A stretch of DNA of 64,000 nt from Candidatus Woesebacteria bacterium (GCA_013374855.1 CP055308.1:178277-242276); one strand, 5' to 3'. Positions 29,603 through 46,075 are shown, counted from the first letter of the stretch. The notes: a model not told the origin generated them from the letters alone. Numbers and translations: made by a program.

Positions 29603-29669
29603 GGACAAAATAATCCGATATACCTTAACAAAACCCTTTGGAATTATCCTTAATTTTGCCGATATCAAC
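29603..29669 (+). mobile_element. Remnant copy 1 of the 3' end of a serine-recombinase-type gene (one of three near-identical tails at 29.6, 41.2 and 46.0 kb).
   Basis: About 65-bp match to 41239-41305 and 46002-46066 (...aatagtccgatataccttgataaaacc.tt.gacac.atcct.aattttgc.gatagtcaa). Confidence 0.5.
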
Positions 29670-29676
29670 TTTTTGG

Positions 29677-29765
29677 CTCAAACGATGGGATGATTATAGA
29701 ACAATTGACTGGGCAAATGAACTGGAATACCCAGAATTTACAACCAAGGAGGTAAATCGTTCTCT
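29677..29765 (+). repeat. About 88-bp direct repeat, copy 1 (copy 2 at 31355-31443). Encodes the peptide fragment LKRWD(D/H)YRTIDW(A/P)NELEYPEFT.
   Basis: Near-identical stretches read directly from the sequence. Confidence 0.7.
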
Positions 29766-30712
29766 CCAGCTTAAACAGTATCTTCAAACTTCACCTACCA
29801 GACCTTTTTCATAGAGAAACCAACTATCATCATAGTCCTCTTTATGCTTCCTGGGTATTTTCCCATTTATTTTTTGATCTCGTTACTTAAAACATGATAA
29901 CGCGCTATTGCATGAGGAAGAGAGGAAAAAGGTGAGACGATAAAAAGTTCTTCCAAAAGATACAAGAGTTTATCTTTTTGTTTAGCCTCTAAAAAACAGC
30001 GATTAAAACTCTGGGCATAAAGTTTACTTAAATCCTGATAAGGATTTTGGTCTTAAAGAGAACAAATTTTTGGATTAGGGAGTTAAGAATAGCTTTTTCT
30101 TGCTTTCGTTACAGCCCTTTTGGCTAAATTCTGGAGACCGGTTAATCTTATCTCACCGAAGTGGATAACAGCTCTTGCCCTTTTAAATCGGCAATAGTAT
30201 TCTGTGCAGAGGTCTTGAAATTTTTTGGCTAGCATAACCTTTTTTATTTTAATTTTAAATAAAAATGGAGAGAATTCAGTTGTTTAGATCTTACTTGCCG
30301 GTAAGTTTGCTAGGGTCCTGGTTGCACCCGCAGCTTGCCCCTCTACTATAGTCTGGCTCGATTCTTTGGTTGGCCTCTAGTGCCTTGACAGGGTCAAAGT
30401 AGGCAAGACCATCAGGGCCTTCGTAGTAGGTTTGGTAACCGAAGGTTTTTAGCGGGTCTGAACCAAACTTACGAGAAAGTTTGAGGTCTCAAAGTATGAT
30501 TTTTCAAAAGTAAATATTGGACTTTTTGGGCAAATTTTAAAAGAAAATGGAACAGAAATAAAAGAGCTTTTAAAAATTTAAGAAGTTTTGTCTTTGAGAA
30601 ATATTTGGGTTTTTACTAACATAAAAAAAGGAAGGATAGAACTTTAAGTTTCTTTTGTTGTGACCAGACGCTTTATCTCCTTTTTGGAGTACCCTTCCTT
30701 AAATTTGATTAC

Positions 30713-31051
30713 TTATTCAATTTTTGGTTGCAAATTTTTGACAAGTTTTTTGATTGACTTTAATTCTGTTTGAAACTCTTTGCTGTCATAGGGCAAAATT
30801 CCATGAAGAGAGAAGCAACGTTGGAGAAGTTCTTCGATTTCTGGCGAAAAAATCTTTTTCTCTAATTGAATTTTAAAAAGATTTAAAAACCTATCGCTAG
30901 CCTGCCCAATCTCAGAACCTACAAGAATCTTATTCTCAATTTGATCAAGCAAAAGAAAAGCTGCTTGAGGAATTTTTTCTTGAGCCTCTGCAAACTTATT
31001 TTCTTTGATAGACTGCTCTATATTTTTGAGGAGTGTTGCTAATTCTTGCAT
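30713..31051 (-). CDS. Hypothetical alpha-helical protein (112 aa).
   Basis: ORF only; no recognisable domain. Confidence 0.35.
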   Translation of the reverse strand: MQELATLLKNIEQSIKENKFAEAQEKIPQAAFLLLDQIENKILVGSEIGQASDRFLNLFKIQLEKKIFSPEIEELLQRCFSLHGILPYDSKEFQTELKSIKKLVKNLQPKIE

Positions 31052-31115
31052 AAATATTAATTGTTAGTTCATTATAATCCAAAATTATTATTAAAATTAA
31101 AAAGATGAAATTGTC

Positions 31116-31307
31116 ATGAACAAAAGGAGTGGATTAACCTTCGAGACAGGGAACGCTAGAGACTTGGCTAAGCAAATTATTTGGGCAATTCAAAACCCAG
31201 TCGAGCTAAAAAAGCTAGCAGAAAATGGTTTTAATTGGCAGAAAGATAAATTCCTGATTGAGGACATGGCAAGAAAACATATGGAGTTCTATAAGACTCT
31301 TCTTTAG
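31116..31307 (+). pseudogene. C-terminal fragment of a family-1 (GT-B) glycosyltransferase; gene remnant.
   Basis: 63-aa ORF with a GT1 C-terminal-like tail (...QNPVELKKLAENGFNWQKDKFLIEDMARKHMEFYKTLL). Nothing upstream in frame. Confidence 0.4.
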
Positions 31308-31354
31308 ACCCTGGTTTTTCGAGGATCGTTCTATCCAACAGGGTTTCTGGGATG

Positions 31355-31443
31355 CTCAAACGATGGGATCATTATAGAACAATTGACTGGCCAAATGAAC
31401 TGGAATACCCAGAATTTACGAACGAGAAAGTAAACCGATTTCT
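31355..31443 (+). repeat. About 88-bp direct repeat, copy 2 (see 29677-29765).
   Basis: Sequence identity with copy 1. Confidence 0.7.
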
Positions 31444-31471
31444 AAGTCTTGCCTCTCTCTATTAAAAATGA

Positions 31472-32782
31472 TTACTGGCAATCGCTGTCACAAGCTATAC
31501 CATCTCCATCTGCATCCCTTGCTTTACAACCACAAACATTTAGTTGATATTGAGCCTCATCACAAGATGACATTTGAGAACAAGTTTTTGAACAATCGCA
31601 GGTATAACTTCCTGATATTTGACTAGATGGTTGGGATTGGGCGAAAGGAACCACCTGGTTAGTGGTTGATTGGGTATTTTGAGTCGATGTTGTAGTCTGT
31701 TGCTGACTTTGTTGAGAAGCTTGAGTTGGTTGAGCATTGCAAACATCTCCCCACAATCCCCTCTTCTCTTCCCTAGCTTGCCTTTGGGCTTCTAAAAATC
31801 TATTTTGATATTTTACATCTGGTGGATAACTGCTTGACTGGGCATAACCCTCCCTAACCAAGTATTCGTTTACAAGCATATCACCGAGCCAGACATACCT
31901 TAAAAGCCTCCCATACTTATCAGTTTCAGAAACATCTTTTTCTAACTTAACCTCTTTTCCCTCCACCAACTCCCTGTTTTTATCGGAAGCCTCTTTGCCG
32001 TAGCACTGGACTGGTTTACTGGGATGAGTCGTTTCGGGAGTATCGATCCCAATATACCTAACTACCTGACCGCCCTCAATTTTAATGGTGTCACCATCAA
32101 TAACATTGATTACTCTCGCTTTATATTTGGAAGGGTTAAAGTTCACAGAAACTTCGTTAACCGCACTCTCATTACCAACAGCATCAACCGCTTTAACACT
32201 GATAGTATTAGTACCCAAGACCAAACCTGTTTTAATCTCAAATTCGCCTTTGTCGTTAGTAATAGTTGCTGGCAATTTGTTACCCTGAACAGAAACTATA
32301 ATTTTTGTACTGGGCTCGGATATACCTTTAATAGAAATTTCTTCTTCACTGTCATCTGGTAATTTATCCGGTAAAACAATTATTGGTTTAGTGGGCGGAG
32401 TCCGATCTACACTAATAATGATATTTTCATTTCTACATTTATCTTTCTTCTCCGAACTGCACACCTCAACAGTATAGGTATAGTTACCATCTTTCAGGTC
32501 GTTCAGGACAAAGTAGAACTTACCACTGGAGTCTGACTTGGTCGACTGAACAATCTCATTGTCTTTCAAGAGATACACTGGCTTACCTGAGTAAGTTTTA
32601 CCACCAATAGAGATAGAACTTTTATTTGTGGAGTCAACTTTCTCTAAAGCAAGTGTGGGAGCAGTAGGAAACAAAATAGCTAATATCGTTAAAAAAGCAA
32701 ATAAGTAAAACCCTGAAGCGATTAAAACCTTCCACCATTTACCCGATCGAAAACCAGGTATTCTTCTCAGGAACGAAAACAT
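31472..32782 (-). CDS. Secreted/membrane-anchored nuclease: N-terminal TM, Ig-like (Big) domains, staphylococcal-nuclease (thermonuclease) domain and a C-terminal Excalibur Ca-binding domain.
   Basis: SNase core (VIDGDTIKIEGGQVVRYIGIDTPET...YGRLLRYVW...RGLWG) and Excalibur motif (DADGDGIACDSDC). Confidence 0.8.
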   Translation of the reverse strand: MFSFLRRIPGFRSGKWWKVLIASGFYLFAFLTILAILFPTAPTLALEKVDSTNKSSISIGGKTYSGKPVYLLKDNEIVQSTKSDSSGKFYFVLNDLKDGNYTYTVEVCSSEKKDKCRNENIIISVDRTPPTKPIIVLPDKLPDDSEEEISIKGISEPSTKIIVSVQGNKLPATITNDKGEFEIKTGLVLGTNTISVKAVDAVGNESAVNEVSVNFNPSKYKARVINVIDGDTIKIEGGQVVRYIGIDTPETTHPSKPVQCYGKEASDKNRELVEGKEVKLEKDVSETDKYGRLLRYVWLGDMLVNEYLVREGYAQSSSYPPDVKYQNRFLEAQRQAREEKRGLWGDVCNAQPTQASQQSQQQTTTSTQNTQSTTNQVVPFAQSQPSSQISGSYTCDCSKTCSQMSSCDEAQYQLNVCGCKARDADGDGIACDSDCQ

Positions 32783-32825: not shown

Positions 32826-33010
32826 TGAGGTATGCCAGAAAAAGAAGCGGGCTACCAACGCTACTAACCATTAAACAAGCTGCCAAGGTGTTAAATTTGC
32901 ATGAATAGGCTTTGCGCAAGTGGGGTAAAAGCGGGAGATTAAAAGCTATTAGAGTTAATAAAGTGGACAACAAGCGCTATGATCCCAAAGACACCAAGAC
33001 AACACCACAT
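32826..33010 (+). pseudogene. Excisionase-family HTH DNA-binding protein gene interrupted by an in-frame TAG.
   Basis: Translation ...LTIKQAAKVLNLHE*ALRKWGKSGRLKAIRVNKVDNKRYDPKD matches excisionase/MerR-type HTH (compare the intact paralog at 42379..42591). TAG is used as a genuine stop by neighbouring genes. Confidence 0.45.
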
Positions 33011-33130
33011 TTTCACCCTCCTTTACAGATAAGGTGGATGGTTCCAGCATCCTCCCAATTTGACTGAATAAAACCGTTTGACAACAAAATAGCCAATTTA
33101 GCCTCTCGTCAATCTGGCTCCCCCCAAAGT

Positions 33131-33165
33131 ACTTGTTCTGCAACCACAAACTAGAGTTTGATATA
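33131..33165 (+). repeat. 35-bp direct repeat R2, copy a (acttgttctgcaaccacaaactagagtttgatata); copy b at 41317-41351. Candidate attachment/junction site of an integrated element.
   Basis: Exact 35/35 match. Related partial motif caagattgtgtttggaaa at 33181 and 40458. Confidence 0.65.
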
Positions 33166-33243
33166 ACCCTTAGCGACTTCAAGATTGTGTTTGGAAACCT
33201 GGGTCTTACCTAACCCAAGCCCGTATTTGTTACCTTGTAGCAT

Positions 33244-33981
33244 TTACTTTAAGCCCATTATTACCACACCATAGCCCTCGTTAGCATAAGCGCAACCATC
33301 AGTCCACCTGGGGTTTTCTAATTGTATTTTGTGCCCTGGACTGCCAGACCAAAAAGCAATTGCCTCTGCAGGTGTTGATGCTCGTATGTACAACTCCGCG
33401 ACCTCTTTGTAACCATACTCTGTTTGAATACCCTCTTGTTTTATCCAATCCTCAAATCCCTCATGTTGTCGTCCCTCCTTAACAGCCCGCCACCGAGACA
33501 CTAGATTATCACCCAAACCTTCGCTTAATTTAACTTCTTGTATTCCCAATGATCTTCTGTGTTCATTAACCGCATTAAACAAATCTTCACCATCATAACC
33601 CCTACCCCACCTAACAGCATTCCCTCTAAACAAAGCAAAAACATAAATTCCAGAAATAAATATTACCAAAAATGTAGCAAATCCAACCTTCCAAGAGCCA
33701 ATACCAAGCGGTGGTTTCCACTTTTCAGCTTTTAGTATTAACCTTAAAAATCCTGCAGAAACTGCTAGTCCAAAAAAGAATAATCCAGCAAATAAAGAAG
33801 AAAGCATCGGTAGTAAATAAGAATGTTCTGAACACTCCTCTCCATAACAAGGATCAATAGTAAAACCTTTTGTAGATAAAAAAATTATAGTAATAAAAGT
33901 AACTGTAGTTACAAACCAAAGGTAAGAGCTGATAACACCAATTTTTGATAATAAAGTAGAGGTTCTTAGCTTTTGAAACAC
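33244..33981 (-). CDS. CAP/SCP (PR-1-like) domain protein with an N-terminal membrane region.
   Basis: CAP motifs (HRRSLG, FWSGSPGHKIQL, WTDGCA). Three N-terminal TM helices. Confidence 0.65.
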   Translation of the reverse strand: MFQKLRTSTLLSKIGVISSYLWFVTTVTFITIIFLSTKGFTIDPCYGEECSEHSYLLPMLSSLFAGLFFFGLAVSAGFLRLILKAEKWKPPLGIGSWKVGFATFLVIFISGIYVFALFRGNAVRWGRGYDGEDLFNAVNEHRRSLGIQEVKLSEGLGDNLVSRWRAVKEGRQHEGFEDWIKQEGIQTEYGYKEVAELYIRASTPAEAIAFWSGSPGHKIQLENPRWTDGCAYANEGYGVVIMGLK

Positions 33982-33987
33982 AGATGT

Positions 33988-34257
33988 TTAAAGATTAATT
34001 CCGAAAATTTTAATAATTAAAAAATTAAAAATTAAAGAAAAGGGCAGAGTAATTAAAATAGCAATAAACCAATTTTTCTTCTTAGCAATAAGTCGGGTTA
34101 CATTAATCCAAGAACCCAACCACAATAATCCACTTATAAGATAAAATGTAGTTCTCAAAGCAGATATGTTTCCACCTATAAACATTGGTCTACCAATCCA
34201 AACATTAAGAATATTGAGTATGATATACCAGATGAGATTATAAACTCTTGCTTCCAA
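33988..34257 (-). CDS. Small hypothetical membrane protein (89 aa).
   Basis: ORF is hydrophobic throughout. Confidence 0.35.
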   Translation of the reverse strand: MEARVYNLIWYIILNILNVWIGRPMFIGGNISALRTTFYLISGLLWLGSWINVTRLIAKKKNWFIAILITLPFSLIFNFLIIKIFGINL

Positions 34258-34674
34258 GACAATTCACTAGACATAGTAAAACTATTTTACTAAAAATTTT
34301 CAATAACAAAAAAATTAATCGAATTTCAGTAGAGGAATGTCATAAAATCAGGATATTTGATCTGGGTCCAATCAGCGGGAACTTGGTTTGGTTGGGTTCG
34401 CAAAGAGTGGGTTTAACAAAAACTGCCTGCAATTACGGTGGTTTTAGGTATTGGTTTGTGTGCTCTAACTGCGAGCGGAGAGTTGGGGTGGTATATTGTA
34501 GGCCTTGTCAGAGCTGTTCCTGTGTCGAACTTGCCAAAACTTAACCTATGATTTGAGAAGATTCTATCAGGATAAAATCGAGTTTACAATTAGGAATAAA
34601 AAGAAGATCGGAAAGATGTTTACAGAGTAATCTTTGTACCCTATAGAACGTAAATATGCTATAATTGGCTCTCA

Positions 34675-35643
34675 ATGATGGATTTGGATAACGGATTCGA
34701 TCAAGATTATTTATCAGGCCTAGAAGAGAGGTTGGTTGAGGTTTGCACTAAAATCACTAAGTCAAAGGAATTTGTGGCTAGTAAGTTAGTGATAGAGAAT
34801 AATATTTGCCACAAGAAGGAACCCGTTTCAGACCATTCAACCCATGTTTTTATGCGATTCCAGGAGCTGTTGAATTTCGACTTTGTTGACTCTGATGAGC
34901 TTAGGAAATTGGCAAAAAGCTATTTTTCTCAGAAAATTGGTAATTGGACTAGGGCGGAGTTATTCTTGATTTCAGCCTTATTGCATGATTTGGGTAAAGT
35001 TGAAACTTTGGTCACAGACGATAAAGGTGAGACCAAGGCTCCAGGCCATGAAGCTAAGAGCGTTCAGATTGCTGAGATAATGCTCAGGCAACTGGGATTT
35101 GTGGGTGTTGAGATTGATTACGTTTTAAATGTGATCAGAGTTCATTCTGGTTATGTTTTGAGATTTTTGGATTTTATTAATGGATTGTCAGAGTCTCAGA
35201 TTAAAAGTGCTTTTGGTTCAGTCCAATTGCTTCCTGAAGTCTTTCTCTACATGATTGCCGATAATGAGAATGCTTCAACTTTTGGTGAATACAAAAAGAT
35301 GATTGAAGAAAGATTTTTACAATACACAGAAATTTATCAAACTGACGATTCCTTTAAAGGGGTAGACGATATTGGCAAGTTGGTTGAGAAGATTTTGATC
35401 TCTTTGAAGAATAATTCTAAGCCTTGGCCAATTGAGACCAGGTTATTTCATCTAAGCGAAGAGGTTGGGGAGTTACATGACATCTATCTTCAATATGTTG
35501 GTGCAAAGGATCGAGAACAAACCATTGTTGACATTCAAAATGCTCTTAATGATGTTTTGGTAGAGACATTGGCTTTGTATGACATTTTCGGGATTGATAT
35601 TAAAAGTTCATTAGAAAAGGTCATAAAAGAAGATGAAAAGTAG
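34675..35643 (+). CDS. Fusion of an HD-domain phosphohydrolase and a MazG-like nucleotide pyrophosphohydrolase.
   Basis: HD motif (ALLHDLGK) in the N-terminal half. MazG-type EExxE helix (SEEVGELHDIYLQYVG...ALNDVLVETLALYDIFGID) at the C-terminus. Confidence 0.6.
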   Translation: MMDLDNGFDQDYLSGLEERLVEVCTKITKSKEFVASKLVIENNICHKKEPVSDHSTHVFMRFQELLNFDFVDSDELRKLAKSYFSQKIGNWTRAELFLISALLHDLGKVETLVTDDKGETKAPGHEAKSVQIAEIMLRQLGFVGVEIDYVLNVIRVHSGYVLRFLDFINGLSESQIKSAFGSVQLLPEVFLYMIADNENASTFGEYKKMIEERFLQYTEIYQTDDSFKGVDDIGKLVEKILISLKNNSKPWPIETRLFHLSEEVGELHDIYLQYVGAKDREQTIVDIQNALNDVLVETLALYDIFGIDIKSSLEKVIKEDEK

Positions 35644-36433
35644 TTTCGTCAAAGCCTACAAAGAAATCGAGTCAAAGATTTTATCTGATAAAGAATTGAG
35701 TAAAAATGTGGAATTGATCGCCCTATTAGGTAGTGTTGCTGACAAAGAGGAGTCGAGTAATTGGAGCGATCTAGATGTCTTAGTGGTTCTTAAAAGCGAC
35801 CGGTTGGGGAATATATTGTTAAAAGATTTGGATCGTCTTCGAGAGATATGTGTGGAAGTATCGAGGCAATACTCATTTCCTATATCTATTTTGAGTCACA
35901 CTATGAATGACTTCGAAAGCTACGTGAGCTTTGAGTATTTGAAGCATTATTCTATGGGAAAATGCTCGTACCCCAATCCAAGTTTTCTAAAACACAAAAT
36001 TGACAGAATTTTGATAAAAAGAAAAGTCGATGACAAAGTACGACAGGCTTATTGTGCTTATCACATGAGACATATCAGATTCAATCTTTTGCGGAAATAT
36101 GTGTCTTTGAATGAGTCAAACTCGGTTAATTGGATAAAAGAATTTGTGAAGCTGTTGATTGACAAGATGATTAAAGTTACTGATCTGGCTTTGAATTTCA
36201 AAAATTTATGGCCTGAATCAAAACAAGAGATTTTAGATACTGCTAGGACTGAATTGAAAGTTGATGTTGGACCCTTGTTAATGGCTTTAGAGATTAGGAA
36301 GGGTTGGTCAAATGTGGCTGATGCAGAGCTTAGTGATTTCATACCGAAAGGTTTGGAATATCTCTTCGACGTAATTAATCTGGTTCTTGGTGAATATGTC
36401 GAGCCGACTCCAGAAGAAAGGATGTTTACATGA
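35633..36433 (+). CDS. Pol-beta-superfamily nucleotidyltransferase domain protein.
   Basis: GS...D.D motif (LLGSVADKEESSNWSDLDVLVVL); overlaps the upstream gene by 11 nt. Confidence 0.55.
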   Translation: MKSSFVKAYKEIESKILSDKELSKNVELIALLGSVADKEESSNWSDLDVLVVLKSDRLGNILLKDLDRLREICVEVSRQYSFPISILSHTMNDFESYVSFEYLKHYSMGKCSYPNPSFLKHKIDRILIKRKVDDKVRQAYCAYHMRHIRFNLLRKYVSLNESNSVNWIKEFVKLLIDKMIKVTDLALNFKNLWPESKQEILDTARTELKVDVGPLLMALEIRKGWSNVADAELSDFIPKGLEYLFDVINLVLGEYVEPTPEERMFT

Positions 36434-38080: not shown

Positions 38081-38089
38081 TCTGAGGTT

Positions 38090-38560
38090 ATGAATAACAC
38101 TAACAATAAAGACGTAACAGTTTACCAACTTTATCAAGAAATCTCTGCCGGAGGTGTACCAATTATTGTGGAAGACGGGGTGCCTAAGTTTGTGGCAATT
38201 GATCGTGTTATGATTAAGGACACCTCTTTGCCTAAAGGGCATCAAGAGCCAGGTGAGAGTCTTCAGCAAACTGCTATTAGAGAAGTTGAAGAAGAAACGG
38301 GTTTTAAAGCAAAGCCTGTGGAATATCTGGGTGAATTTACTTACGAAGTCAAAAATGAAGTTCATAAAAAGATAACGATGGTTACTGTCCATTGGTTTTT
38401 AATGATGGTTGAGTCAGGTAAAGCTAGAGAGGCAAATGATGAGACTAAGCAAGTGAGATTGATTCCCCTTGACTCTGACTTGTCCATTCTGACCTACGAG
38501 AATCACAGGATGTTTGTAGAAAAGGCTAGAGAAGTAATTAGTAAGCATTTACCTACGTAA
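38090..38560 (+). CDS. NUDIX hydrolase.
   Basis: Nudix box GHQEPGESLQQTAIREVEEETGF. Confidence 0.75.
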   Translation: MNNTNNKDVTVYQLYQEISAGGVPIIVEDGVPKFVAIDRVMIKDTSLPKGHQEPGESLQQTAIREVEEETGFKAKPVEYLGEFTYEVKNEVHKKITMVTVHWFLMMVESGKAREANDETKQVRLIPLDSDLSILTYENHRMFVEKAREVISKHLPT

Positions 38561-38583
38561 GCTCGTGCCCCGGCCTCGTCATT

Positions 38584-39339
38584 ATGAACAAAGAGAGATT
38601 TCCAAACGTCGAGTTATTTTCACCTGAGGTAGTAAAGTCCATTAAAGTATGGAGCAAAATAGCTTATGAGAGTGATACGCCTATTTATATTAAAGGGGGA
38701 GCGATAAGAGACTCTTTGATCAATCTGATCCATGGAGCGAACCTGAAGGTTAAGGATCTAGACTTGGTTGTTCCTGCTGGGCTATTTCGAGTGGTCCAAG
38801 TTGCTCAAAAGTACGGTTTCACGATAGAGAGGAGAGGGAAAAGGAAAAAGTTACCCATGTATCATATGTCTGGAGATACTGGCTTAGATGTTGATTTGAG
38901 TTATTTACTATCAAGTCCAAATGATAAAAATGTTTCTGAATCTGAGATTTTGAAGCAGGATGCTTTACTGTCTGATTTGGACATAAATACTATTTCATAT
39001 AATCTTTTAACTGGCGAGATTCATGATCTGTTGGGAGCCATGAAATCGATTGCTTCTAGACAAATAAGTTTGGTTTCCGAGAGGAGCTTATTCTTGAATC
39101 CGGCTACTATTTTTAAGTGTCTCAAAATAGCCGCTAAGACAGGCTTTGATGTTTCTCCTACGTCTTTGGAGATGATTCGAAAAAATGCCGGTATAGTATT
39201 GAGATTGGAAGGTTGGTTTTTGAGGAGAAGTATTGATGAAGTTCTGGAATTTGCATCCGCTGAAGAATTGTTAGCTGCTTTTGATAGATTAGGTTTGTTG
39301 GAAATTCGACCAGAAATTGTTGACTATTTAACGCCATGA
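38584..39339 (+). CDS. Nucleotidyltransferase with a poly(A)-polymerase/CCA-adding-enzyme head domain.
   Basis: IYIKGGAIRDSLINLIHGANLKVKDLDLVV (compare PF01743 vylVGGaVRDlLLg..kDiDlvt). Confidence 0.55.
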   Translation: MNKERFPNVELFSPEVVKSIKVWSKIAYESDTPIYIKGGAIRDSLINLIHGANLKVKDLDLVVPAGLFRVVQVAQKYGFTIERRGKRKKLPMYHMSGDTGLDVDLSYLLSSPNDKNVSESEILKQDALLSDLDINTISYNLLTGEIHDLLGAMKSIASRQISLVSERSLFLNPATIFKCLKIAAKTGFDVSPTSLEMIRKNAGIVLRLEGWFLRRSIDEVLEFASAEELLAAFDRLGLLEIRPEIVDYLTP

Positions 39340-40307
39340 CCAATCGTGAAGTCACTATCATAATTACTACTTGGAACTCTTTGGAATATCTCAAGTTGTG
39401 CTTGGAGGCTTTGGAGAAGTATACAAAGCAACCATACGAAATAATTATCTTGGATAATGGTTCTGCTGATGGGACGAAGGAATATGTTTCTGAGTTGTCT
39501 GACGTTTGCTATCTTAGGTCAGAAAGGAATTTGGGGACTATAAGGGCTCTAAAGAGGGCTGAGAGATTTATTAAGACGAAATTTGTAGTTTTATTGGATA
39601 GTGACTCAATAGTTTCGCCCAATTGGCTGAACACCTTTCTTACAATCTATGAAGAGAATCCCCAGGTGAAGGCAATTGGTCCGATAAAACCAAGCTCACA
39701 GCTTTCATATCCATATGTGAAAGGCAAAAATAGTAGGCAGGTCTGGGATGAGATTAAGGTTGGCAATGAAGGCAAGAGCCCCAAAAAACTTTTGGAGATT
39801 TACTGTAGGGGGAAGAGTTACGAAAGGTTCGTAAGTGACTTCTTAGCTAAGAATGAGGTTGGCAATGTCACTTTGTTATGTCCTCCAGAGTTTCTAAGTG
39901 GGTGCTGCATTTTCTTGGACTACGATTTCATCAAGCCACTTGGTGGATTAACAAACACTGCTTTCAAAAAATATGGCGTAGAAGACGTCGATAGATGTTG
40001 GAGGATCGCCAAGGGTGGTGGCTTGGTGATGAAAACTAGTAGGGTATATGTGCACCATTTTGAGGGGAGCAGTTTGAAAAAGAACAAGCTAAATTATCGA
40101 CCTTTGCTTTATAAGAACAATCGTATTTTACTAGATCTATGGAAAGATGAATTTTGGAAATTTATCGATTCTTCTAATCTGAGTTTGAAGGAATTGACTA
40201 GGAAGTATTGGTTAGTAAGAGAGTTGTTGTTATCTGCTAGGGAAGACCAAATTCCGAAAAAACTTAAACCGGAAATAGAAACTTTAAGCCTGGTGAGTAG
40301 TGTTTAG
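39336..40307 (+). CDS. Glycosyltransferase family 2.
   Basis: IIITTWNSLEYL...EIIILDNGSADGT and DSD motif (LLDSDSIV). Confidence 0.75.
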   Translation: MTNREVTIIITTWNSLEYLKLCLEALEKYTKQPYEIIILDNGSADGTKEYVSELSDVCYLRSERNLGTIRALKRAERFIKTKFVVLLDSDSIVSPNWLNTFLTIYEENPQVKAIGPIKPSSQLSYPYVKGKNSRQVWDEIKVGNEGKSPKKLLEIYCRGKSYERFVSDFLAKNEVGNVTLLCPPEFLSGCCIFLDYDFIKPLGGLTNTAFKKYGVEDVDRCWRIAKGGGLVMKTSRVYVHHFEGSSLKKNKLNYRPLLYKNNRILLDLWKDEFWKFIDSSNLSLKELTRKYWLVRELLLSAREDQIPKKLKPEIETLSLVSSV

Positions 40308-40519
40308 AGAAGCCGCAAGTATAATTAGCTCATGAGTAAGATTGATCAGATTGATATTATGATATTAAGGGATTGCTTAATAGTGCAGCAAGGCAATTAA
40401 GAGCTGAGTTTGAGGAAATAAAATACAAATTGCCAGGCACAAGCCTTATTGACCTCAAGATTGTGTTTGGAAATCTTAAATTAAGCTCAAAAAAACTGTA
40501 TTATTCTATATTCTATAAA

Positions 40520-40850
40520 TTTCTTATAAACCTGCCTTACTAACAACATCGCATAATCAATATTCTCATCTCTCTCAATCATAAAATCGGTAACGTGCTT
40601 GTTGTAATATCGAAAACTATTTTTCTAATATTTTGTCCGCTTTTCTGGGTCTCTCAAATCTTCTGGTTTAACCCTTAGAATCTGTAATAGTAATTTAGAT
40701 TTCCTAACCTGAATAGCAATAACATTTTTATTCTCAATATTAACCCAATGTATACTTAACAGGATGTATCTCAAAGCGAAGGTCAAGTTCCAAAACTATC
40801 TGAGAAAACTCATCAAATGTTCTTAATACCAATCTATCTGAAGTCTATCT
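40520..40850 (-). pseudogene. Decayed partial duplicate of the 3' part of the 41416..42339 gene.
   Basis: Nucleotide similarity between 40520-40850 and 41416-41760 (for example ...cataatcaata...ctcaaagcgaaggtcaagttccaaaactatctgagaaaactcatcaaa...). The reading frame is broken. Confidence 0.45.
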
Positions 40851-41039
40851 GAAGTTTTTTCTTAGTAAAGGAAAATCCCATAAAAATTGCTTTGCCTTAA
40901 GAGATAAAATTGACAATGAAAGTAAAAAATTTTTGTTTTTTAGATAAAACATTAGAACAACTTAAAAAACTATTAATCTCTGTTAAAGATGCTTTGAAAA
41001 ATAGAAAAATGGATATATCAGTAATTAAAATTAATATGA

Positions 41040-41310
41040 CAAATTAGACAAACATTTTACAGAAAATATCGATGAAATTGACAATAAATTAGCTAACCTT
41101 AAAAAGGCTAAAAATAATTATTATTTAACTGTAGATACCTTCTTTAACTTACAAATAGAGCTTATGATTTATTTCTTAGTTCTGAAATAGAAGAAAGGTA
41201 ACTCTTGAAACTTTTACTTGAGAACCTTGAAGTCAGATGGCAAAATAGTCCGATATACCTTGATAAAACCATTCGACACAATCCTTAATTTTGCTGATAG
41301 TCAACTCCCC
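41040..41310 (+). mobile_element. Remnant copy 2 of a serine-recombinase-type gene (about 270 bp of the 3' region, ...IDEIDNKLANLKKAKNNYYLTVDTFFNLQIELMIYFLV... then the DGKIVRYTLIKPFDTILNFADSQLP tail), adjacent to repeat R2.
   Basis: Nucleotide and peptide similarity to 45790-46075 and 29603-29669. Frames are interrupted. Confidence 0.5.
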
Positions 41311-41316
41311 TAAAAG

Positions 41317-41351
41317 ACTTGTTCTGCAACCACAAACTAGAGTTTGATATA
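41317..41351 (+). repeat. 35-bp direct repeat R2, copy b.
   Basis: Exact match to 33131-33165. Confidence 0.65.
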
Positions 41352-41415
41352 GGCCTCAGCAACCCTAAAGTTTCATTTGAAAAACCAGGACTAAAACAAA
41401 CAAAGCTCGTTTTTG

Positions 41416-42339
41416 CTACCCTGTAAAGCTCTTATAAACCTGCTTTACCAGCGACATCGCATAATCAATATCGTCTTCATCTTTAATATCGAATTCAGAT
41501 ATGTGAACATTGTAATATTTATAACTATTTTCTGAATATCTAACCCTTTTTTCTGGATCTTTTAGATCTTCAGGTTTTACTCTAAGAAGTGATAATAAAA
41601 GCTTTAACTTTCTTATTTGAACTGTAACAAGGTTTTTATTTCCAATGTTAAAACCTATGTAATATTTTACCGGTTTAATCTTTATTTGAGGGTCGATCTC
41701 CAAAACTCTCTGAGAAAACTCATCAAACAACTCCTTCGCCTTAGTCCAATTGGGTCTAATGTGATCTTCAATGGAATACTGCTTAATTTCCCTAGACACT
41801 CGCTCAATGTCTTTGTTCTTAGTAACGGTTCTTATACTCTCACTCTTTTCAGAAGCCCTAACCTGATTAAAAGAAACTAAATTCTCGTCATATTTCTTTA
41901 CTTCCCAAAGCTCAATCGGCAAATCTTGAAACCCAATAGCTTCCTGTTGATATTTAGTAAAAGATTGAGCAATAAAAATTACTCTGGATTGAGACCAGTC
42001 AATATCATCTTTTTTTAGATTTTTCTTAGTTTTTTCATTATATTCAAGAACAAAATCAGCTTTATTGTTTAACAGTAGAGCAAGGTAAGCATATCCCTGG
42101 TCAATTACACTAAAATTTTTATCTCGCTTATACTCAATAACCACAAATGCTTTAGCTTCTTCATCAAAAGCCAATGTATCAATCCGCAGATTATTCAAGA
42201 AAAACTCCGTAGCAACAAAACTCAAACCAAAAACCTCACTCAAATTGGCTTCAACTAAACTTTGTAAGGTTTTTTCCAACTCTACCTTCTTTTCTTTGAT
42301 AGGAACGAGTTTATTATCAATCTGCTTATAAATCGGCAT
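41416..42339 (-). CDS. PD-(D/E)xK nuclease-like protein (restriction-endonuclease-like fold).
   Basis: D ... E-Y-K arrangement (RIDTLAFDEEAKAFVVIEYKRDK) typical of PD-(D/E)xK cores. The exact family is unassigned. Confidence 0.45.
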   Translation of the reverse strand: MPIYKQIDNKLVPIKEKKVELEKTLQSLVEANLSEVFGLSFVATEFFLNNLRIDTLAFDEEAKAFVVIEYKRDKNFSVIDQGYAYLALLLNNKADFVLEYNEKTKKNLKKDDIDWSQSRVIFIAQSFTKYQQEAIGFQDLPIELWEVKKYDENLVSFNQVRASEKSESIRTVTKNKDIERVSREIKQYSIEDHIRPNWTKAKELFDEFSQRVLEIDPQIKIKPVKYYIGFNIGNKNLVTVQIRKLKLLLSLLRVKPEDLKDPEKRVRYSENSYKYYNVHISEFDIKDEDDIDYAMSLVKQVYKSFTG

Positions 42340-42378
42340 AACAAGACCATTGTAGCAAAAATTGATAAAATATGATAA

Positions 42379-42591
42379 ATGGAGTTAAATGTAATTGGCA
42401 TGGTAGAAGATAGATACTACAGCATTGAAGAAGTGGCTAAAATGTTAAAAGTTGTCTATTTGACAGTTTATCGCTGGATACAATCAGGTAAGTTAGTAGC
42501 TTATAAAGCTGGGAAACAATATAGAATTAAAAATAAAGACCTTGAAAATTTTATAGGGAAGAAAAAATCTAAGAAAACATTATTGATATGA
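42379..42591 (+). CDS. Excisionase-family helix-turn-helix DNA-binding protein.
   Basis: YYSIEEVAKMLKVVYLTVYRWIQSGKLVAYKAGKQYRI matches the excisionase/MerR-type HTH. Confidence 0.75.
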   Translation: MELNVIGMVEDRYYSIEEVAKMLKVVYLTVYRWIQSGKLVAYKAGKQYRIKNKDLENFIGKKKSKKTLLI

Positions 42592-43717
42592 AAAATAAAG
42601 ATCTTAACATTGCTAAAAAACTAAAAAACGATGAATTTTATACGCAATATCAAGATATTCAAAAAGAAATTGAGGCATATCTTGAGTTCAACCCAGATAC
42701 TTTTATGGATAAGGTAGTATATTGCAATTGTGATGACCCGTATGAAAGCAATTTCTTTCGATACTTTGTTCTTAACTTCCGAAAGCTTGGACTTAAAAAA
42801 CTCATTACGACAAGCTATAGCCCTTCTCCCATTGCTGGTACACAACTTAATTTGTTTGATGTAAACAACGCAGACCGTATTATTCAACATTCTCCCCCAA
42901 AAAAGGCTGTCAAATTTGTTATTCAAGAAGTAGGTGACATTGATGGAGATGGCGAATTTAATTTAAAGGATATCGCAAAACAGCTGAAAGAAAACAGGCA
43001 CAATGAGTGGTCACTCCTTAATGGCAACGGTGATTTTAGAAGTGAAGAATGTATAGAACTTCTTAAGCAGTCGGATATTGTAGTAACCAATCCACCTTTC
43101 TCGCTTTTTCGTGAATATGTCAAACAACTTTTTGATTACAATAAGAAGTTTTTGATTATAGGAAGCATGAACGCAATTACATACAAAGAAATATTTCCTC
43201 TCATAAAGCAAAATATAATATGGTTAGGCCCTAGTATTACAAGTGGCGATAGAGAATTTCAGGTACCAGATTATTATCCACTTAAAGCTGCAGGCTTTAG
43301 AGTAGATGAACAAGGTCGAAAGTTTTCAGAATAAAAGGGGTAAGATGGTTTACAAACCTTGATCATGGTCGCCGCCACAAAGTTATTCCCCTTATGACAA
43401 TGGCAGATAACTTAAAATTTAATAAAAAAATTCAAAACAATCCCGACAGCTACAAAAAATATGACAACTACAACGCTATTGAAGTACCCTATACCGAAGC
43501 CATCCCGAGTGATTATAGTGGTGTAATGGGTGTTCCTGTAAGTTTCTTGGACAGACACAATCCTGAGCAGTTTGAAATTCTAGGTAGCGATTACAATATC
43601 AAAGAAGGACTACTTCCAGATTTAGTCAATCCTGAATGGAAAGGTAAGTTAGATAGAGGGTATATCAATGGTAAAAGGCTTTTTACACGTATCCTTATAA
43701 AACACAAGATAAAATAA
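42588..43717 (+). pseudogene. N6-adenine DNA methyltransferase of the EcoRI-methylase-like family, split by a -1 frameshift at about 43310-43335 into ORFs 42588..43334 and 43394..43717.
   Basis: N-terminal DEFYTQY and catalytic NPPFS in the first ORF. The family-conserved ...WFTNLDHGRRH... reads in the second ORF's frame starting upstream of its ATG (frame open from 43310). MGVPVSFL is in the second ORF. An A4G4 run lies at 43333-43340. Confidence 0.65.
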
Positions 43718-43718
43718 T

Positions 43719-44888
43719 ATGATCACTACACTACGAACAGACATTACTGTGAAGGATATTTGCGAAGGGTTTGTCTACAGCGATCTTGAAGGCAAAGGAT
43801 TATTCGGATGGGGCGGTAAATTAGTAATCCAACCAGAGTACCAACGCAATTACATTTATGCATCCGATGGTGGAAGAAGAGAAATAGCAGTTATCGAATC
43901 AGTACTAAAAGGCTATCCCTTGGGACTTATTTACTTTACCAAAGTTGCGGAAGATAAATTTGAAGTCTTAGACGGCCAACAACGAATCACCAGTCTTGGT
44001 AGATTTATAACTGACAAGTTTGCTATTAAAGATGAGAATGGGCTTGAGCAGTACTTTAGCGGAATGGCAGTAAATAAAAAACAAAAGATTTTGGAAACAA
44101 AGCTTTTGATTTACATTTGCGAAGGAACAGAAAGCGAAATAAAAGAATGGTTTAAGACAATTAACATCGTAGGTATACCTCTTAATGAACAAGAACTCCT
44201 TAATTCTGTATATTCTGGTCCTTTTGTTACTCTTGGGAAAGCAGAGTTTAGTAACAGCCAAAATCCCCATATCAAAAAATGGAGCGCCTACATAAAAGGA
44301 AGTGCTAACAGGCAAGATTTTTGGGCAACAGCTCTCAAGTGGGTAAGCAAGAACAATGTTGGTGACTATATGAGCCGTCATAGATATGATACCAATATTG
44401 ATGAAGTAAAAACATACTTTAATAGTGTCATTGATTGGGTATCAAGCGTGTTTATTGATGTTAAAAAGGAAATGTGTGGACTTGAGTGGGGTAGATTATA
44501 CGAGCAGTATCACAATACTCCCTACAATCCTCAGGAGGTTTCCGAACTGGTGGAGAGACTTTATAATGATCCTTATATCAAAAACCGAAGAGGAATTTTT
44601 GAATATATTTTAGGAGGCTGTCAAACTCCAAATCTTCTTGATATTAGAGTATTTGACGAGGCAACAAAAAGAATAGTGTACAAAAAACAAACCGATGAGG
44701 CGCAAGAAAAACAAATCTCAAACTGTCCTTTGTGCGCAGTTTCAAACACCGCAAACAAAAGTAAAATATGGAAATTTGATGAGATGGAAGCCGATCATGT
44801 TAGTGCGTGGAGCAAAGGTGGAGTGAGCGATATAAACAATTGTCAAATGCTTTGCATAACTCATAACAGAGCAAAAGGAAATAAGTAA
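43719..44888 (+). CDS. DUF262 (ParB-like nuclease, DGQQR motif) plus C-terminal HNH endonuclease domain protein; GmrSD-like.
   Basis: N-terminal ...GYPLGLIYF...DGQQRITS; C-terminal CPLC...[11 protein letters not shown]...[10 protein letters not shown] (HNH). Confidence 0.7.
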
Positions 44889-44898
44889 GTATGAATGT

Positions 44899-45606
44899 AT
44901 GGACAAAACTCTTTTTCTTTTTATTGACGAATCAGGTAATTTTGACTTCAGTCCGGAGGGAACAAAATACTTTGTACTTACTTGCTTAAGCACTTTTCAA
45001 CCAGTTACTGACAGAGAATTGTTATTAAAACTAAAATATGATCTGCTAACCGATGGTATTGACCAAGAATTTTTTCACGCAACGGAAGATAAACAAATAG
45101 TTAGAGATAAAATTTTTGAGATCATAAGAAACTTAAAAGATGATATAGAAGTACACGCAGTAATCGCACAAAAAAACAAAGCTAATCCTGTATTATATCG
45201 TGAAGAGTATTACAAGAATGGAAGGAAAATAGTAAGAAACACAGGTGCAGAATTTTATCAGCGAATATGTCGGACCCTATTACAATATGTATTCCGTCGA
45301 TCAAATTTTTTGGGAACTAATAAAATCGTAGTTGTTCTTGGTGCAGTTTTTACAAGAGACAAACAGTCAATAATTTTAAAAACACTAAAAGAATACCTAA
45401 AGGAAAATTTTTCAATACCTTTTGAAATTTATTTCCATGCTTCAAAAGCAGATTTAAACTGTCAACTAGCAGACTATTTCGGTTGGTCCATTTACATAAA
45501 ATGGGAAAGGGGTGAAGAACGCCCTTATAACTTGGTAAAAGATAAAATAAAAAGCTCTTTTGAAATATTTAGAACAGGCACAAAAACTTACTATGAGTAT
45601 AAATAA
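44899..45606 (+). CDS. DUF3800-family protein.
   Basis: N-terminal LFLFIDESGNF motif typical of DUF3800. Confidence 0.5.
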   Translation: MDKTLFLFIDESGNFDFSPEGTKYFVLTCLSTFQPVTDRELLLKLKYDLLTDGIDQEFFHATEDKQIVRDKIFEIIRNLKDDIEVHAVIAQKNKANPVLYREEYYKNGRKIVRNTGAEFYQRICRTLLQYVFRRSNFLGTNKIVVVLGAVFTRDKQSIILKTLKEYLKENFSIPFEIYFHASKADLNCQLADYFGWSIYIKWERGEERPYNLVKDKIKSSFEIFRTGTKTYYEYK

Positions 45607-45611
45607 AACGA

Positions 45612-45663
45612 CCAACCCATCTATCCTTGCGGAAGAGCCCGAGGGCTCTTATCAATGGGTTGG
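45612..45663 (+). repeat. Nested inverted repeats (outer ccaacccat/atgggttgg; inner aagagccc gag gggctctt) between the DUF3800 gene and the recombinase remnant. Terminator-like or recombination-site-like.
   Basis: Read directly from the sequence. No U-tract follows. Confidence 0.4.
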
Positions 45664-45716
45664 AACCTTTAGAGGTATTGTAACATAAACTGATAAATTT
45701 TTGTCAAGGGGAATTT

Positions 45717-46075
45717 ATGAAAGCCATAATTTTAGCCAGAGTATCAACTGAAGAACAATTAAAAGAGGGACATCACCACCGATGAATATAACAGATTATA
45801 TAAGCGGTTTAGAGAAAAGATTGATGAAATTGATATTAAGTTAAGTTAGCCAACCTCCAGAAAGCCGAGGATAACTATTATTGTTTGACCGTAAATTATC
45901 TACTCCAAGTCGCAAATCGAGTTTATGATTTGTTCATAAGCTCTGAAATATAAGAAAAACAACAACTTTTAAGACTTTGGCTTCAGAACTTGAAGATTGA
46001 TGGTAAAATAGTCGATATACCTTGATAAAACCCTTTGACACCATCCTCAATTTTGCCGATAGTCAAGCCTGGCTC
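45717..46075 (+). mobile_element. Remnant copy 3 of the serine-recombinase gene. The N-terminus MKAIILARVSTEEQLKEG is followed by a premature stop, then frame-broken internal and C-terminal pieces (...YKRFREKIDEIDIKLS..., ...DGKIVDIPLIKPFDTILNFADSQ).
   Basis: Resolvase/invertase-type N-terminal signature (ARVST.EQ). Tail identical to copies at 29.6 and 41.2 kb. Confidence 0.55.

Follow-up and report, generated by a model that had tools for sequence, protein, structure and literature searches.

An apparent accretion island at a tRNA-Asn gene, built from small integrative elements whose crossover core seems to lie inside their own serine recombinase gene

The window, by which we mean the whole 64,000-nucleotide stretch of DNA analysed here, carries between 29.57 and 50.54 kb (~21 kb) a series of worn gene remnants that we interpret, with a probability of roughly 0.8, as an accretion island in which six or more small integrative elements of a single family were serially inserted at the 3' end of a tRNA-Asn gene and then decayed by deletion, the crossover core lying inside the large serine recombinase (LSR) gene. 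Serial site-specific integration beside tRNA-Asn followed by recombinase decay, which the initial annotation had proposed together with the fixation of cargo, is supported as the best reading because the relics are LSR genes, because in dozens of genomes intact relatives directly adjoin the tRNA-Asn 3' end, and because arrays of relic, cargo and LSR recur elsewhere (L001, L019, L041, L043, L055, L057, L058 and L079). Comparison of the worn relics with intact relatives, in which the element measures about 7-10 kb, further suggests that the attachment site is carried inside the element's own recombinase gene. An earlier account of such an arrangement was not found in the literature.

Recombinase relics and element junctions in the window

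The three tail repeats of about 60 nt that had been noticed previously were recovered at 29606-29664, 41241-41299 and 46003-46061, all on the plus strand and with 78-83% identity to a reference copy, and are the 3' ends of LSR genes. By blastn, copy 1 matched copy 2 at 78% over 91 nt and copy 3 at 84% over 63 nt, and the longer frame-broken bodies described for copies 2 and 3 were confirmed over ~285 nt in common (41030-41304 versus 45782-46066, 74%). The initial description of three decayed copies of the same gene was right as to the serine recombinase and wrong on the two other points: the copies are relatives, 74-84% identical and followed by different types of downstream extension, and at least six junction relics are present, with relics at 31352, 33068 and 40395 adding to those first described.

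The N-terminus of copy 3 is indeed present from 45717 and reads MKAIILARVSTEEQLKEGHHHR before a stop, which is located 8 codons past EEQ and not immediately behind it as had been stated. The C-terminal coding part begins directly after this stop, so that about 360 codons have been cleanly deleted from the interior of the gene. Once rebuilt, copy 3 matched the intact 493-aa LSR of L038 at residues 1-20 (E 2e-5) and 380-484 (E 4e-36), as anticipated for a serine recombinase. Its N-terminal resolvase piece, MKAIILARVSTEEQLKEGH, includes the serine nucleophile motif (…ARVS(T/S)xxQ) and is 60% identical to L038 residues 1-20, a length too short for Pfam PF00239, and its C-terminal coiled coil and tail share 55% identity over 109 aa with residues 380-484. 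The Recombinase (PF07508) and zinc-ribbon (PF13408) domains are deleted from all relics in the window, and copies 1, 2 and 4 have also lost the N-terminal resolvase part. Since PF07508 and PF13408 are present in the matching intact homologues (Resolvase, Recombinase and Zn_ribbon_recom domains in L038, L001 and L004), the relics are to be considered remnants of LSR genes and not LSR genes. A profile search with the tail recovered full-length proteins of 485-523 aa along with many fragments.

The 88-bp direct repeat, first listed as an accompanying feature, is real (29676-29765 versus 31354-31443, 89%) and is not accessory: it is the final coding segment of the LSR gene, separated from the rest and here termed the extension. 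Likewise, a 119-nt repeat (33121-33239 and 41307-41425, 75%) is the detached C-terminal coding end of the recombinase. As these repeats mark the left end of each element, the boundaries could be placed at the core (TG)GCTC(CCC), at 29674, 31352, 33115, about 40395, 41305 and 46070. Four extension copies are clear (29674, 31352, 33115 and 41305; E 1e-6 to 5e-18) and two are decayed (40395 and 46070). This core, common to the junctions and the tRNA 3' end, follows a tail at 29674, 33115, 41305 and 46070 (Table 1) and has GCTCCCCGGG as its tRNA-Asn counterpart.

Table 1. Features of the array, listed by position in the window.
Feature	Coordinates	Strand	Remarks
LSR tail relic 1 (…LELKDKIIRYTLTKPFGIILNFADINF)	29574..29673	+	Last ~30 codons only; right end of an otherwise deleted element; abuts ArsR gene
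Core TGGCTC and c-type extension (WLKRWDDYRTIDWANELEYPEFTTKEVNRSLQL)	29674..29772	+	Left boundary of E1 (unit spans 29.67-31.35 kb)
Solitary c-type extension (ATGCTC…LKRWDHYRTIDWPNELEYPEFTNEKVNRFLSL), no tail ahead	31352..31450	+	attL-type junction; left end of E2
E2 cargo: secreted SNase-type nuclease	31472..32782	-	c-type extension and SNase arrangement also in relative L086
HTH_17 (excisionase/MerR-like) pseudogene of E2	32852..33013	+	HTH_17 E 1e-6; in-frame TAG 32906-32908
LSR tail relic 4 (KPFDNKIANLASRQS)	33068..33114	+	Missed in the initial annotation; right end of E2; followed by TGGCTCCCC and the 119-nt repeat
Core TGGCTCCCC and b-type extension ORF (WLPPKYLFCNHKLEFDITLSDFKIVFGNLGLT, stop)	33115..33239	+	Left end of E3; contains a copy of the 119-nt repeat
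E3 cargo: two minus-strand genes of unknown kind, followed by HD, nucleotidyltransferase, GT4, NDK-like, NUDIX, PolyA_pol-type NTase, GT2	33244..40307		Right end without recombinase relic
Decayed b-type extension relic (…SLIDLKIVFGNLKL)	40395..40480	+	Left end of heavily deleted E3b; tail-less; adjoins DUF5655 gene relic
DUF5655 / PDC-S18 gene relic of E3b	40517..40817	-	61-64% aa identity to intact copy 41416-42339
LSR C-terminal relic 2 (coiled-coil end and tail)	41030..41304	+	Frameshifts, stops; right end of E3b
Core CTCCCC (TGG lost) and b-type extension (PLKDLFCNHKLEFDIGLSNPKVSFEKPGL…)	41305..41425	+	Left end of E4
E4 cargo: DUF5655/PDC-S18 (-), HTH_17, type II EcoRI-like methylase split in two ORFs, GmrSD_N/HNH restriction-type enzyme, DUF3800	41416..45606		
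LSR relic 3: N-terminal 19 codons MKAIILARVSTEEQLKEGH joined by internal deletion to last ~100 codons	45717..46069	+	2 frameshifts, 1 stop; right end of E4
Core TGGCTCCAC and decayed, weakly b-like extension (H, stop, DLFFSYKRTLIRA, stop)	46070..46125	+	Probable left end of E5; weak assignment
E5 operon: polyprenyl synthetase, GT2, methyltransferase, NUDIX, methyltransferase	46263..50495	+	Without recombinase relic
tRNA-Asn (GTT), attachment target of the family	50545..50617	-	3' flank …gaaat, then GCTCCCCGGG; CCA not encoded; no tail

E1 contains mostly gene fragments, and the order of E4, from HTH_17 through restriction-modification cargo to LSR, matches the backbone of intact elements. Both excisionase-type HTH genes reported initially are present, the HTH_17 gene at 42379-42591 being intact (Pfam E 1.7e-14) and the E2 copy interrupted by its TAG codon. 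HTH_17 genes also occur in the intact elements L038 and L003, and their role in directionality is putative; known LSR RDFs are structurally diverse. LSR relics form the right ends of E2, E3b and E4; no recombinase relic was found at the right ends of the 33.1-40.4 kb (E3) and 46.07-50.54 kb (E5) units. The E5 operon is conserved at 51-73% aa identity in two relatives, and c-type extensions flank it on both sides in L085 and L086. The tRNA-Asn gene was confirmed at the end of the array; its 3' flank looks native-like (no TG, no tail) and the site looks unoccupied. The nearest recombinase relic ends 4.47 kb from this gene and does not abut it, as is also the case in L041, L055, L058 and L072.

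Family members in other genomes

We compared 80 related genome loci, among which 49 full-length LSR homologues were counted. The LSR ends exactly on the antisense 3' end of a tRNA for 40 of these 49 homologues, 32 overlapping a called antisense tRNA by 2-6 nt and another 8 abutting a tRNA-Asn that bears a group I intron. The target is tRNA-Asn in Patescibacteria and tRNA-Asp, Glu, Arg or Gln in Babeliales. In intact relatives the element closes with the LSR gene, which points toward the tRNA and whose W-L-P codons (TGG CTC CCC) overlap the 3' acceptor end. The TG of TGG is present at tRNA-Asn genes with an adjacent LSR and missing at those without one, in which CCA is not encoded.

A solitary b-type extension was found at a consistent distance, 1.6-10 kb upstream of the tail, in about 28 loci, with unrelated flanking DNA ahead of it and similarity beginning at GCTCCCC. 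Elements at tRNA-Glu (L060) and tRNA-Arg (L076) display the same layout, attL and attR sharing cores of their own, and the tRNA-Gln element (L081) has a solitary extension upstream with a less clear shared core. All 31 extension copies checked are open for 30-44 codons in the LSR frame, apart from a variable first codon, which in one case is a stop codon. Pairwise differences average 0.375, 0.232 and 0.517 at codon positions 1, 2 and 3, and 55% of changes are synonymous in frame versus 24% and 9% out of frame (all pairwise values, uncorrected for shared ancestry), a bias indicating that the extension is coding. Within an element, extension and LSR co-vary (Mantel rho 0.52, reached by 4 of 5000 permutations, shared ancestry not being corrected). 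Finally, the tails closest to extension-bearing tails (66-100% identical, mostly 73% or more) are followed by tRNA, and this uncoupling of tail and downstream sequence identifies the core as a recombination junction.

Proposed integration mechanism

In the model that we propose, crossover would take place in the core GCTC(CCC), at a dinucleotide whose exact position is presumptive. In the putative free circular form, the LSR frame would run through the core into the 33-40 further codons of the extension. The attP site would then be tail-core-extension, inside the LSR gene, and attB flank-core-tRNA, and their recombination would produce attL (flank-core-extension) and attR (tail-core-tRNA), with the extension ending up at the leftmost edge of the element. 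With attP inside the LSR gene, integration at the tRNA 3' end would therefore exchange the C-terminus of the protein for a few residues encoded by the tRNA antisense strand, any functional effect of this swap being conjectural. The array would grow when a later element arriving at the same tRNA end joined the older tail to its own extension, which may have generated the tail-core-extension junctions initially spotted as repeats.

Neither a free circle nor a contig joining a full-length LSR to its own extension and left end was recovered, and a search of IMG/VR for relatives among viral contigs returned none. The right ends of E3 and E5, which have no tail relic, count against this scheme. The tRNA-proximal E5 operon also looks older than the still-recognisable LSR pseudogene on its left and hence fits poorly with a simple order in which the newest element is next to the tRNA, any order and timing of insertion in the window being tentative. 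Recombination between attP and attR-type sites is not known for canonical LSRs, and tandem insertion would thus require a putative relaxation of the left-arm requirement in the target.

Alternative explanations

The extension could instead be the native C-terminus of each recombinase, the element boundary lying downstream of the stop, the gene never being split and solitary extensions being leftovers of older genes. Nine full-length LSRs do run straight into an extension on chromosomal contigs (L004, L019, L043, L053, L073 and others), and the extension types have in common the pattern WLxxxDxF(R/I)(T/N), as would be found in one protein family. However, the solitary extensions start at the core behind unrelated DNA, which would require ~28 deletions to the same nucleotide; near-identical tails precede tRNA in one genome and extension in another, the identity of an extension follows the LSR carried by the next element on the right, and detached copies are still under coding constraint, which together render a native C-terminus improbable. 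Duplication, within this genome, of a single recombinase gene together with its neighbourhood would account for direct repeats that all point the same way inside 17 kb and for the two occurrences of DUF5655, and is very hard to reconcile with copies just 74-84% identical and joined to two or three extension types, with units that differ in cargo, with the same architecture at tRNA in unrelated genomes and with closer relatives elsewhere (80% aa identity to P0001). An assembly artefact, for example chimeric joins at repeats, is just as implausible: an independent contig (L084, Logan SRR6186653) does have its ends precisely at the tRNA and the 119-nt repeat, showing that these repeats interrupt assembly, but it reproduces window positions 41322-50574 (9.25 kb, junction 46070 included) at 100% identity, the copies have diverged and hence are not collapsed, and the junctions are structured as in other genomes.

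It is also conceivable, if doubtful, that the array is not only a graveyard and that its recombinase-less units (E3, E5 and the operon unit of L085/L086) are cargo-only cassettes that are bounded by core and extension and that a resident recombinase mobilises in trans, much as cis-mobilisable elements or integron cassettes are moved. The operon unit has a left extension and a right core in three genomes with three different neighbours, and an LSR-less block separates the last tail junction from tRNA-Asn in L041, L055, L058, L072 and L012, where the tRNA flank is devoid of TG. Mobility of such units is only putative, however, and deletion of the recombinase with erosion of a short relic would give the same picture in compact genomes; this path of decay is visible in nine fragments that still adjoin a called tRNA and in three others next to a tRNA-Asn with an intron, and in L085 a faint trace of a tail survives to the left of the operon. 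Equally doubtful is the extension of this idea, in which the array junctions act as chromosomal attP-like sites and the tRNA end as attB, and in which any resident or incoming recombinase turns the locus into a cassette-capture platform at tRNA-Asn, excising, shuffling and re-inserting units such as the 46.3-50.5 kb glycosylation/isoprenoid operon. If true, this would amount to an integron-like system that depends on a serine recombinase, with the C-terminus of the enzyme rewritten at each event.

Comparison with known systems

The elements of this family resemble the prophages and integrative elements that use LSRs, or serine integrases (phiC31, Bxb1, A118, SPbeta, SCCmec ccr), in the association of Resolvase, Recombinase and Zn ribbon with a coiled coil, in the location of the recombinase gene at the element edge and in attP and attB sites that share short identity only; SCC elements also form tandem composite islands at one site. 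They differ from these in targeting a tRNA gene at its very 3' end and in that the attP core would lie inside the recombinase ORF, 33-40 C-terminal codons being detached on integration. A large survey of LSR attachment sites nowhere mentions tRNA (PMC10083194).

Serial integration at one tRNA, tandem arrays, integrase decay, fixed cargo and cargo-only remnants are described for tRNA islands formed by accretion (Islander-type, streptococcal ICE/CIME, Prochlorococcus tycheposons; PMC4383910; bioRxiv 10.1101/2020.12.28.424599). The array in the window shares with them serial insertion at one tRNA, tandem arrays, integrase decay, fixed cargo and cargo-only remnants. Those islands, however, are overwhelmingly based on tyrosine integrases and duplicate a 3' segment of the tRNA, whereas here only about 4-9 nt of the tRNA end are common and it is parts of the recombinase gene itself that recur as landmarks.

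In mycobacteriophages BPs, Brujita and cluster P, which display integration-dependent immunity, attP is placed in the 3' end of a phage gene, integration altering the C-terminus of the protein (PMC4557955). The gene there encodes a repressor and the enzyme is a tyrosine recombinase, whereas here it is the recombinase's own gene, any regulatory effect being conjectural. A C-terminal tag in mycobacteriophage integration-dependent immunity was reportedly described by Broussard et al. in 2013.

Archaeal SSV1-type 'suicidal' tyrosine integrases have an att site within the integrase gene and a tRNA target, the gene being partitioned and its detached pieces marking integrated elements, and a review regards suicidal integrases as exclusive to archaea (PMC8371274). 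The likeness to our elements lies in the att site inside the integrase gene, the tRNA target and the use of detached gene pieces as markers. The chemistry is that of serine recombinases here and of tyrosine recombinases there, and our elements are bacterial; moreover, the SSV1-type enzyme is divided into two sizeable portions and presumably inactivated, whereas here only the last 33-40 residues would be exchanged and an ORF of 480-490 aa left intact.

Tandem recombinase relics in the window

A repeat search of 28-52 kb placed three copies of a recombinase gene 3' end (hereafter tail) on the plus strand at 29606-29664, 41241-41299 and 46003-46061 with 78-83% identity, as the initial annotation had claimed, and recovered its 88-bp direct repeat at 29677/31355 as a 90-nt repeat at 29676 and 31354 (89% identity). 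The same search returned two sets of repeats that had not been fully described, namely a 119-nt repeat (33121-33239 and 41307-41425, 75%) and shorter repeats connecting 40.4-40.8 kb with 33.2 and 41.7 kb, and blastn and tblastn searches inside the window located a weak fourth tail at 33068-33121. The first observation is confirmed and extended by this fourth tail, the further repeats and the relics of extensions, which are 33-40 further codons in the recombinase frame, of b or c type, beyond a GCTC(CCC) core. By three-frame translation, copy 3 starts with the N-terminal piece MKAIILARVSTEEQLKEGHHHR and a stop, continued immediately in other frames by …TDEYNRLYKRFREKIDEIDIKLS, by LANLQKAEDNYYCLTVNYLLQVANRVYDLFISSEI, a stop and EKQQLLRLWLQNLKIDGKIV, and by RYTLIKPFDTILNFADSQAWLH and a stop; copy 2 retains the same C-terminal region in a more broken state and copy 1 nothing beyond the last ~30 codons. 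An assembly artefact, considered at the outset, is excluded because the relic copies are only 74-84% identical to one another and because an independently assembled Logan contig (L084, SRR6186653) is 100% identical to the window over 41322-50574.

The reconstructed C-terminus matched 33 proteins in a protein search, all of 67-168 aa, without Pfam annotation and from Patescibacteria-type sources. These are colinear as far as …PFDTILNxADxQxWL and then split into a few kinds of ending: (a) PRLDSNQxP-like, encoded by the antisense strand of a tRNA T-arm and acceptor, where TGG corresponds to CCA; (b) PLKDLFINRxxEF…, exactly the 119-nt repeat of the window; and (c) AxWDDFRTxxW…, exactly its 88-bp repeat. 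The neighbourhood of two matching proteins comprised, in this order, the fragment, several kb of genes and an intact large serine recombinase (LSR) with Resolvase, Recombinase and Zn_ribbon_recom domains. An exhaustive profile search yielded 3620 relatives, among them full-length proteins of 485-523 aa that terminate in tRNA-antisense-encoded residues. Reconstructed copy 3 aligned with the 493-aa LSR of a relative's locus (L038), which carries all three Pfam domains, at residues 1-20 (E 2e-5) and 380-484 (E 4e-36). This alignment identifies the window relics as remnants of LSR genes from which the recombinase and zinc-ribbon parts have been deleted.

Although nearly all matches in word-based protein searches were short fragments, we did not infer from them that fragments outnumber intact genes, since many full-length genes came up both when the profile was searched exhaustively and when genomes were scanned. 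Scores of unannotated 'proteins' of 50-170 aa in public databases (P0001-P0033, P0181-P0238) represent LSR tails left on their own, some with an extension and others not; many have kept an open frame, and the source of one labels it an RQC complex YloA/Tae2 protein.

An LSR family at tRNA 3' ends

Scanning genomes, one for each species, gave 80 loci, 49 of which carry a full-length LSR gene, taken here as a tail whose ORF extends at least 400 codons upstream without a stop. In 32 of these 49 the gene and an antisense tRNA share 2-6 nt at the 3' end of the tRNA; the tRNA concerned is tRNA-Asn for Patescibacteria, and tRNA-Asp, Glu, Arg or Gln for Babeliales/TM6. Among the 80 loci, 12 fragments likewise abut a tRNA. 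In 8 more of the 49, 42 nt of tRNA-Asn come after the tail and lead into a conserved motif that is a group I intron, and these eight LSRs abut an intact tRNA-Asn too. In 13 loci with a tail, 42 nt of tRNA-Asn and the non-tRNA motif …GGACTATCTCAT, the motif was at first ascribed to another family of elements, inserted in the anticodon loop; this reading was dropped because the motif is a group I intron in the tRNA-Asn anticodon loop (62.5 bits, E 1.2e-15, measured in L021; ten loci aligned). Besides L021, tRNA-Asn genes with such an intron lie just behind the LSR tail in further Patescibacteria, at L001, L007, L008, L015, L016, L018, L027, L029, L034, L052, L070 and L077. Intron-bearing tRNA-Asn genes were missed by ARAGORN and by the Rfam tRNA model.

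The end of tRNA-Asn at an abutting LSR or relic is usually TGGCTCCCC, whereas TG is missing in the five Patescibacteria loci and in the window (50545-50550) where nothing abuts the tRNA. In the window comparison, native tRNA-Asn genes, as opposed to attR sites (tail-core-tRNA) in L005-L062, have no encoded CCA. The integrated element thus supplies the encoded CCA through the Trp codon (TGG) of its LSR. In L012 an intact LSR is followed by only 27 nt of tRNA and an intact tRNA-Asn lies 9.6 kb away, with transposase-like ORFs between them (11092-12030, 12631-13578 and 17478-18425, two of them similar and of 315 aa), which suggests disruption by an insertion sequence whose family was judged by eye from the N-terminal sequence only.

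Left ends and extensions

Long tRNA direct repeats were searched as candidate left attachment sites and gave only ~10-nt matches, so the search turned to the core-plus-extension junction. With extension peptides as tblastn queries, a solitary b-type extension, (W)LPLVDxFxNREIEFGFSLQNIQTVFETFQI, was found in ~28 loci 1.6-10 kb upstream of the tail, preceded by unrelated sequence, with similarity starting at GCTCCCC and the three preceding nucleotides variable. In L060 (tRNA-Glu) and L076 (tRNA-Arg) both element ends share their own tRNA-specific core; L081 (tRNA-Gln) has the upstream solitary extension and a less clear shared core. The solitary extensions of L033 (2771-2800), L041 (6037-6066), L086 (1183-1212) and L008 (4196-4225) have in front of them a common short motif, …TATATTAAGYGCCAAC, that looks like a shortened tail.

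In all 31 copies of the extension checked, the frame of the LSR W-L-P stays open over 30-44 codons; the one exception is the first codon, which varies and in L021 is a stop. In pairwise comparisons that ignore kinship, differences at codon positions 1, 2 and 3 amount to 0.375, 0.232 and 0.517, and 55% of single-nucleotide codon differences are synonymous in frame versus 24% and 9% out of frame; by these measures solitary extensions evolve like coding sequence. The nearest relatives of extension-followed tails (66-100% identical, mostly at least 73%) run into a tRNA instead, so that what lies past the core is uncoupled from the gene in front. Within elements, extension identity and right-end LSR identity are correlated (rho 0.52; 4 of 5000 permutations; pairwise, kinship ignored).

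In the simplest reading, attL would be flank-core-extension and attR tail-core-tRNA, from which attP would be tail-core-extension, within the LSR ORF. A circular form was not observed and IMG/VR viral contigs held no relatives; P0058, where a partial LSR runs on into an extension on a 2.8-kb contig, has no bearing on circularity. Intact elements share a backbone of extension, minus-strand gene, 359-aa protein, SpoVG-like protein, 378-aa protein, HTH_17, restriction-modification cargo and LSR. The SpoVG-like gene followed by the ~378-aa protein gene (no Pfam match), seen at L038 5734-7129, at L001 7773-9189 and as equivalents in L022, L014, L037 and L044, may form a replication or maintenance module of the element; both genes are missing from every window unit. 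One intact element also contains a LOOT RNA adjoining its HTH_17 gene (L003 8027-8136, minus strand; RF03000, 71.2 bits).

Organization of the window array

Features of the array, in window coordinates, and of the intron-bearing tRNA-Asn of L021
Feature	Position	Strand	Content or source
Tail, TGGCTC, c-extension	29574-29772		
c-extension without tail	31352-31450		
Tail, TGGCTCCCC, b-extension	33068-33239		
Extension relic adjoining DUF5655 relic	~40395-40480		
LSR C-terminus, CTCCCC, b-extension	41030-41425		
N- and C-terminal LSR relic, TGGCTCCAC, decayed extension	45717-46125		
Unit E1	29.67-31.35 kb		gene fragments
Unit E2	31.35-33.11 kb		SNase nuclease, HTH_17 pseudogene, tail
Unit E3	33.1-40.4 kb		nucleotide/sugar-related genes; without tail
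Unit E3b	40.4-41.3 kb		almost wholly deleted
Unit E4	41.3-46.07 kb		PDC-S18/DUF5655, HTH_17, split type II methylase, GmrSD/HNH restriction-type enzyme, DUF3800, LSR relic
Unit E5	46.07-50.54 kb		polyprenyl synthetase-GT2-MTase-NUDIX-MTase operon; without relic
Group I intron, tRNA-Asn anticodon loop	L021 10382-10584	-	Rfam RF00028

The array is limited on the right by tRNA-Asn, beyond which lie two short unannotated ORFs and rpoD, and is preceded on the left by ArsR, thioredoxin, an ArsP permease and YibE/F. G+C content (31-40% throughout) did not separate the units. Exact-protein look-ups gave no match for the ArsR neighbour and, for the methyltransferase, only a contig identical to the window. 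In E1, the short ORFs 31116-31307 (+), for which a Pfam search gave no match, and 30280-30470 (-) resemble by eye C-terminal fragments of a glycosyltransferase and a secreted protein. The EcoRI-like type II methylase of E4 is split into ORFs 42588-43334 and 43394-43717 (+), covering profile positions 2-224 and 246-345, also in the independent contig L084, and is probably a pseudogene beside an apparently intact restriction-type gene. Outside the array, the window holds a cobalamin riboswitch unrelated to it (16421-16564 (+), RF00174, 39.4 bits) and, at 54704-63870, six clustered tRNA genes (Arg, four Ser, Arg) among which tRNA-Ser(TGA) occurs twice, the copy at 61788-61873 scoring only 30.2 bits with Rfam.

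The interpretation of the initial annotation, serial integration next to a tRNA followed by recombinase inactivation, is supported with corrections, and the window is a decayed, probably immobile island. Tandem insertion would need the recombinase to accept a target with an older tail as its left arm, which is plausible given that native left flanks are not conserved.

The operon of E5 is kept in two metagenomic relatives, L085 and L086, at 51-73% amino-acid identity. Both carry a c-type extension in front of it, joined in L085 by a faint tail relic, and another core and c-extension directly after it, starting a different element with an SNase in L086 (as in window E2) and with a NACHT/STAND NTPase and methylases in L085. 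These right-hand junctions fit the model, in which newcomers insert between operon and tRNA. Against it, none of the three genomes has a recombinase relic in the operon unit, which in the window sits between the tRNA and a younger-looking recombinase pseudogene; in five further loci a block devoid of an LSR separates tRNA-Asn from the last tail junction. Such cargo-only units might have been mobilised in trans, which we regard as unlikely. Deletional loss of the recombinase followed by erosion of the relic accounts for them economically, and this path is illustrated by the 12 fragments still abutting a tRNA.

Discussion

Should attP truly be internal to the recombinase gene, the enzyme would switch, upon integration, between a long form in the free element and a short form in the integrated one. 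These forms would amount to a record of integration state built into the protein, and they could control directionality either with or without an excisionase. The genomes of Patescibacteria (CPR) and Babeliales are tiny, and few mobile elements have been recognised in them. The family appears to be a main route by which these bacteria gain genes for restriction-modification and for other defence or surface functions, with one tRNA as the constant site. Engineers of serine integrases may take an interest in its natural targets, conserved tRNA ends, and the dozens of unannotated public 'hypothetical proteins' of 80-130 aa that represent its relics are usable as island-boundary markers.

Neither the enzyme family nor the general phenomenon of islands accreting at tRNA genes and of integrase decay is new. 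Our literature search, of incomplete coverage, found no bacterial LSR family described as targeting the extreme 3' end of tRNAs with an attP core inside its own ORF, so that an earlier description is possible; searches on serine recombinases, tRNA, Patescibacteria/CPR and attP within an integrase gene returned nothing relevant. The main text of a large survey of LSR attachment sites does not mention tRNA (PMC10083194), and a review considers 'suicidal' integrases, with the att site inside their own gene, exclusive to archaea (PMC8371274). An integrase-internal att site has so far been described for archaeal tyrosine integrases only, whereas the present family is serine-type and bacterial. The family-level mechanism exposed by the window is a variant that we did not find described, and it is directly testable. 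Its nearest bacterial analogy is the integration-dependent immunity of mycobacteriophages, where the gene affected is the repressor.
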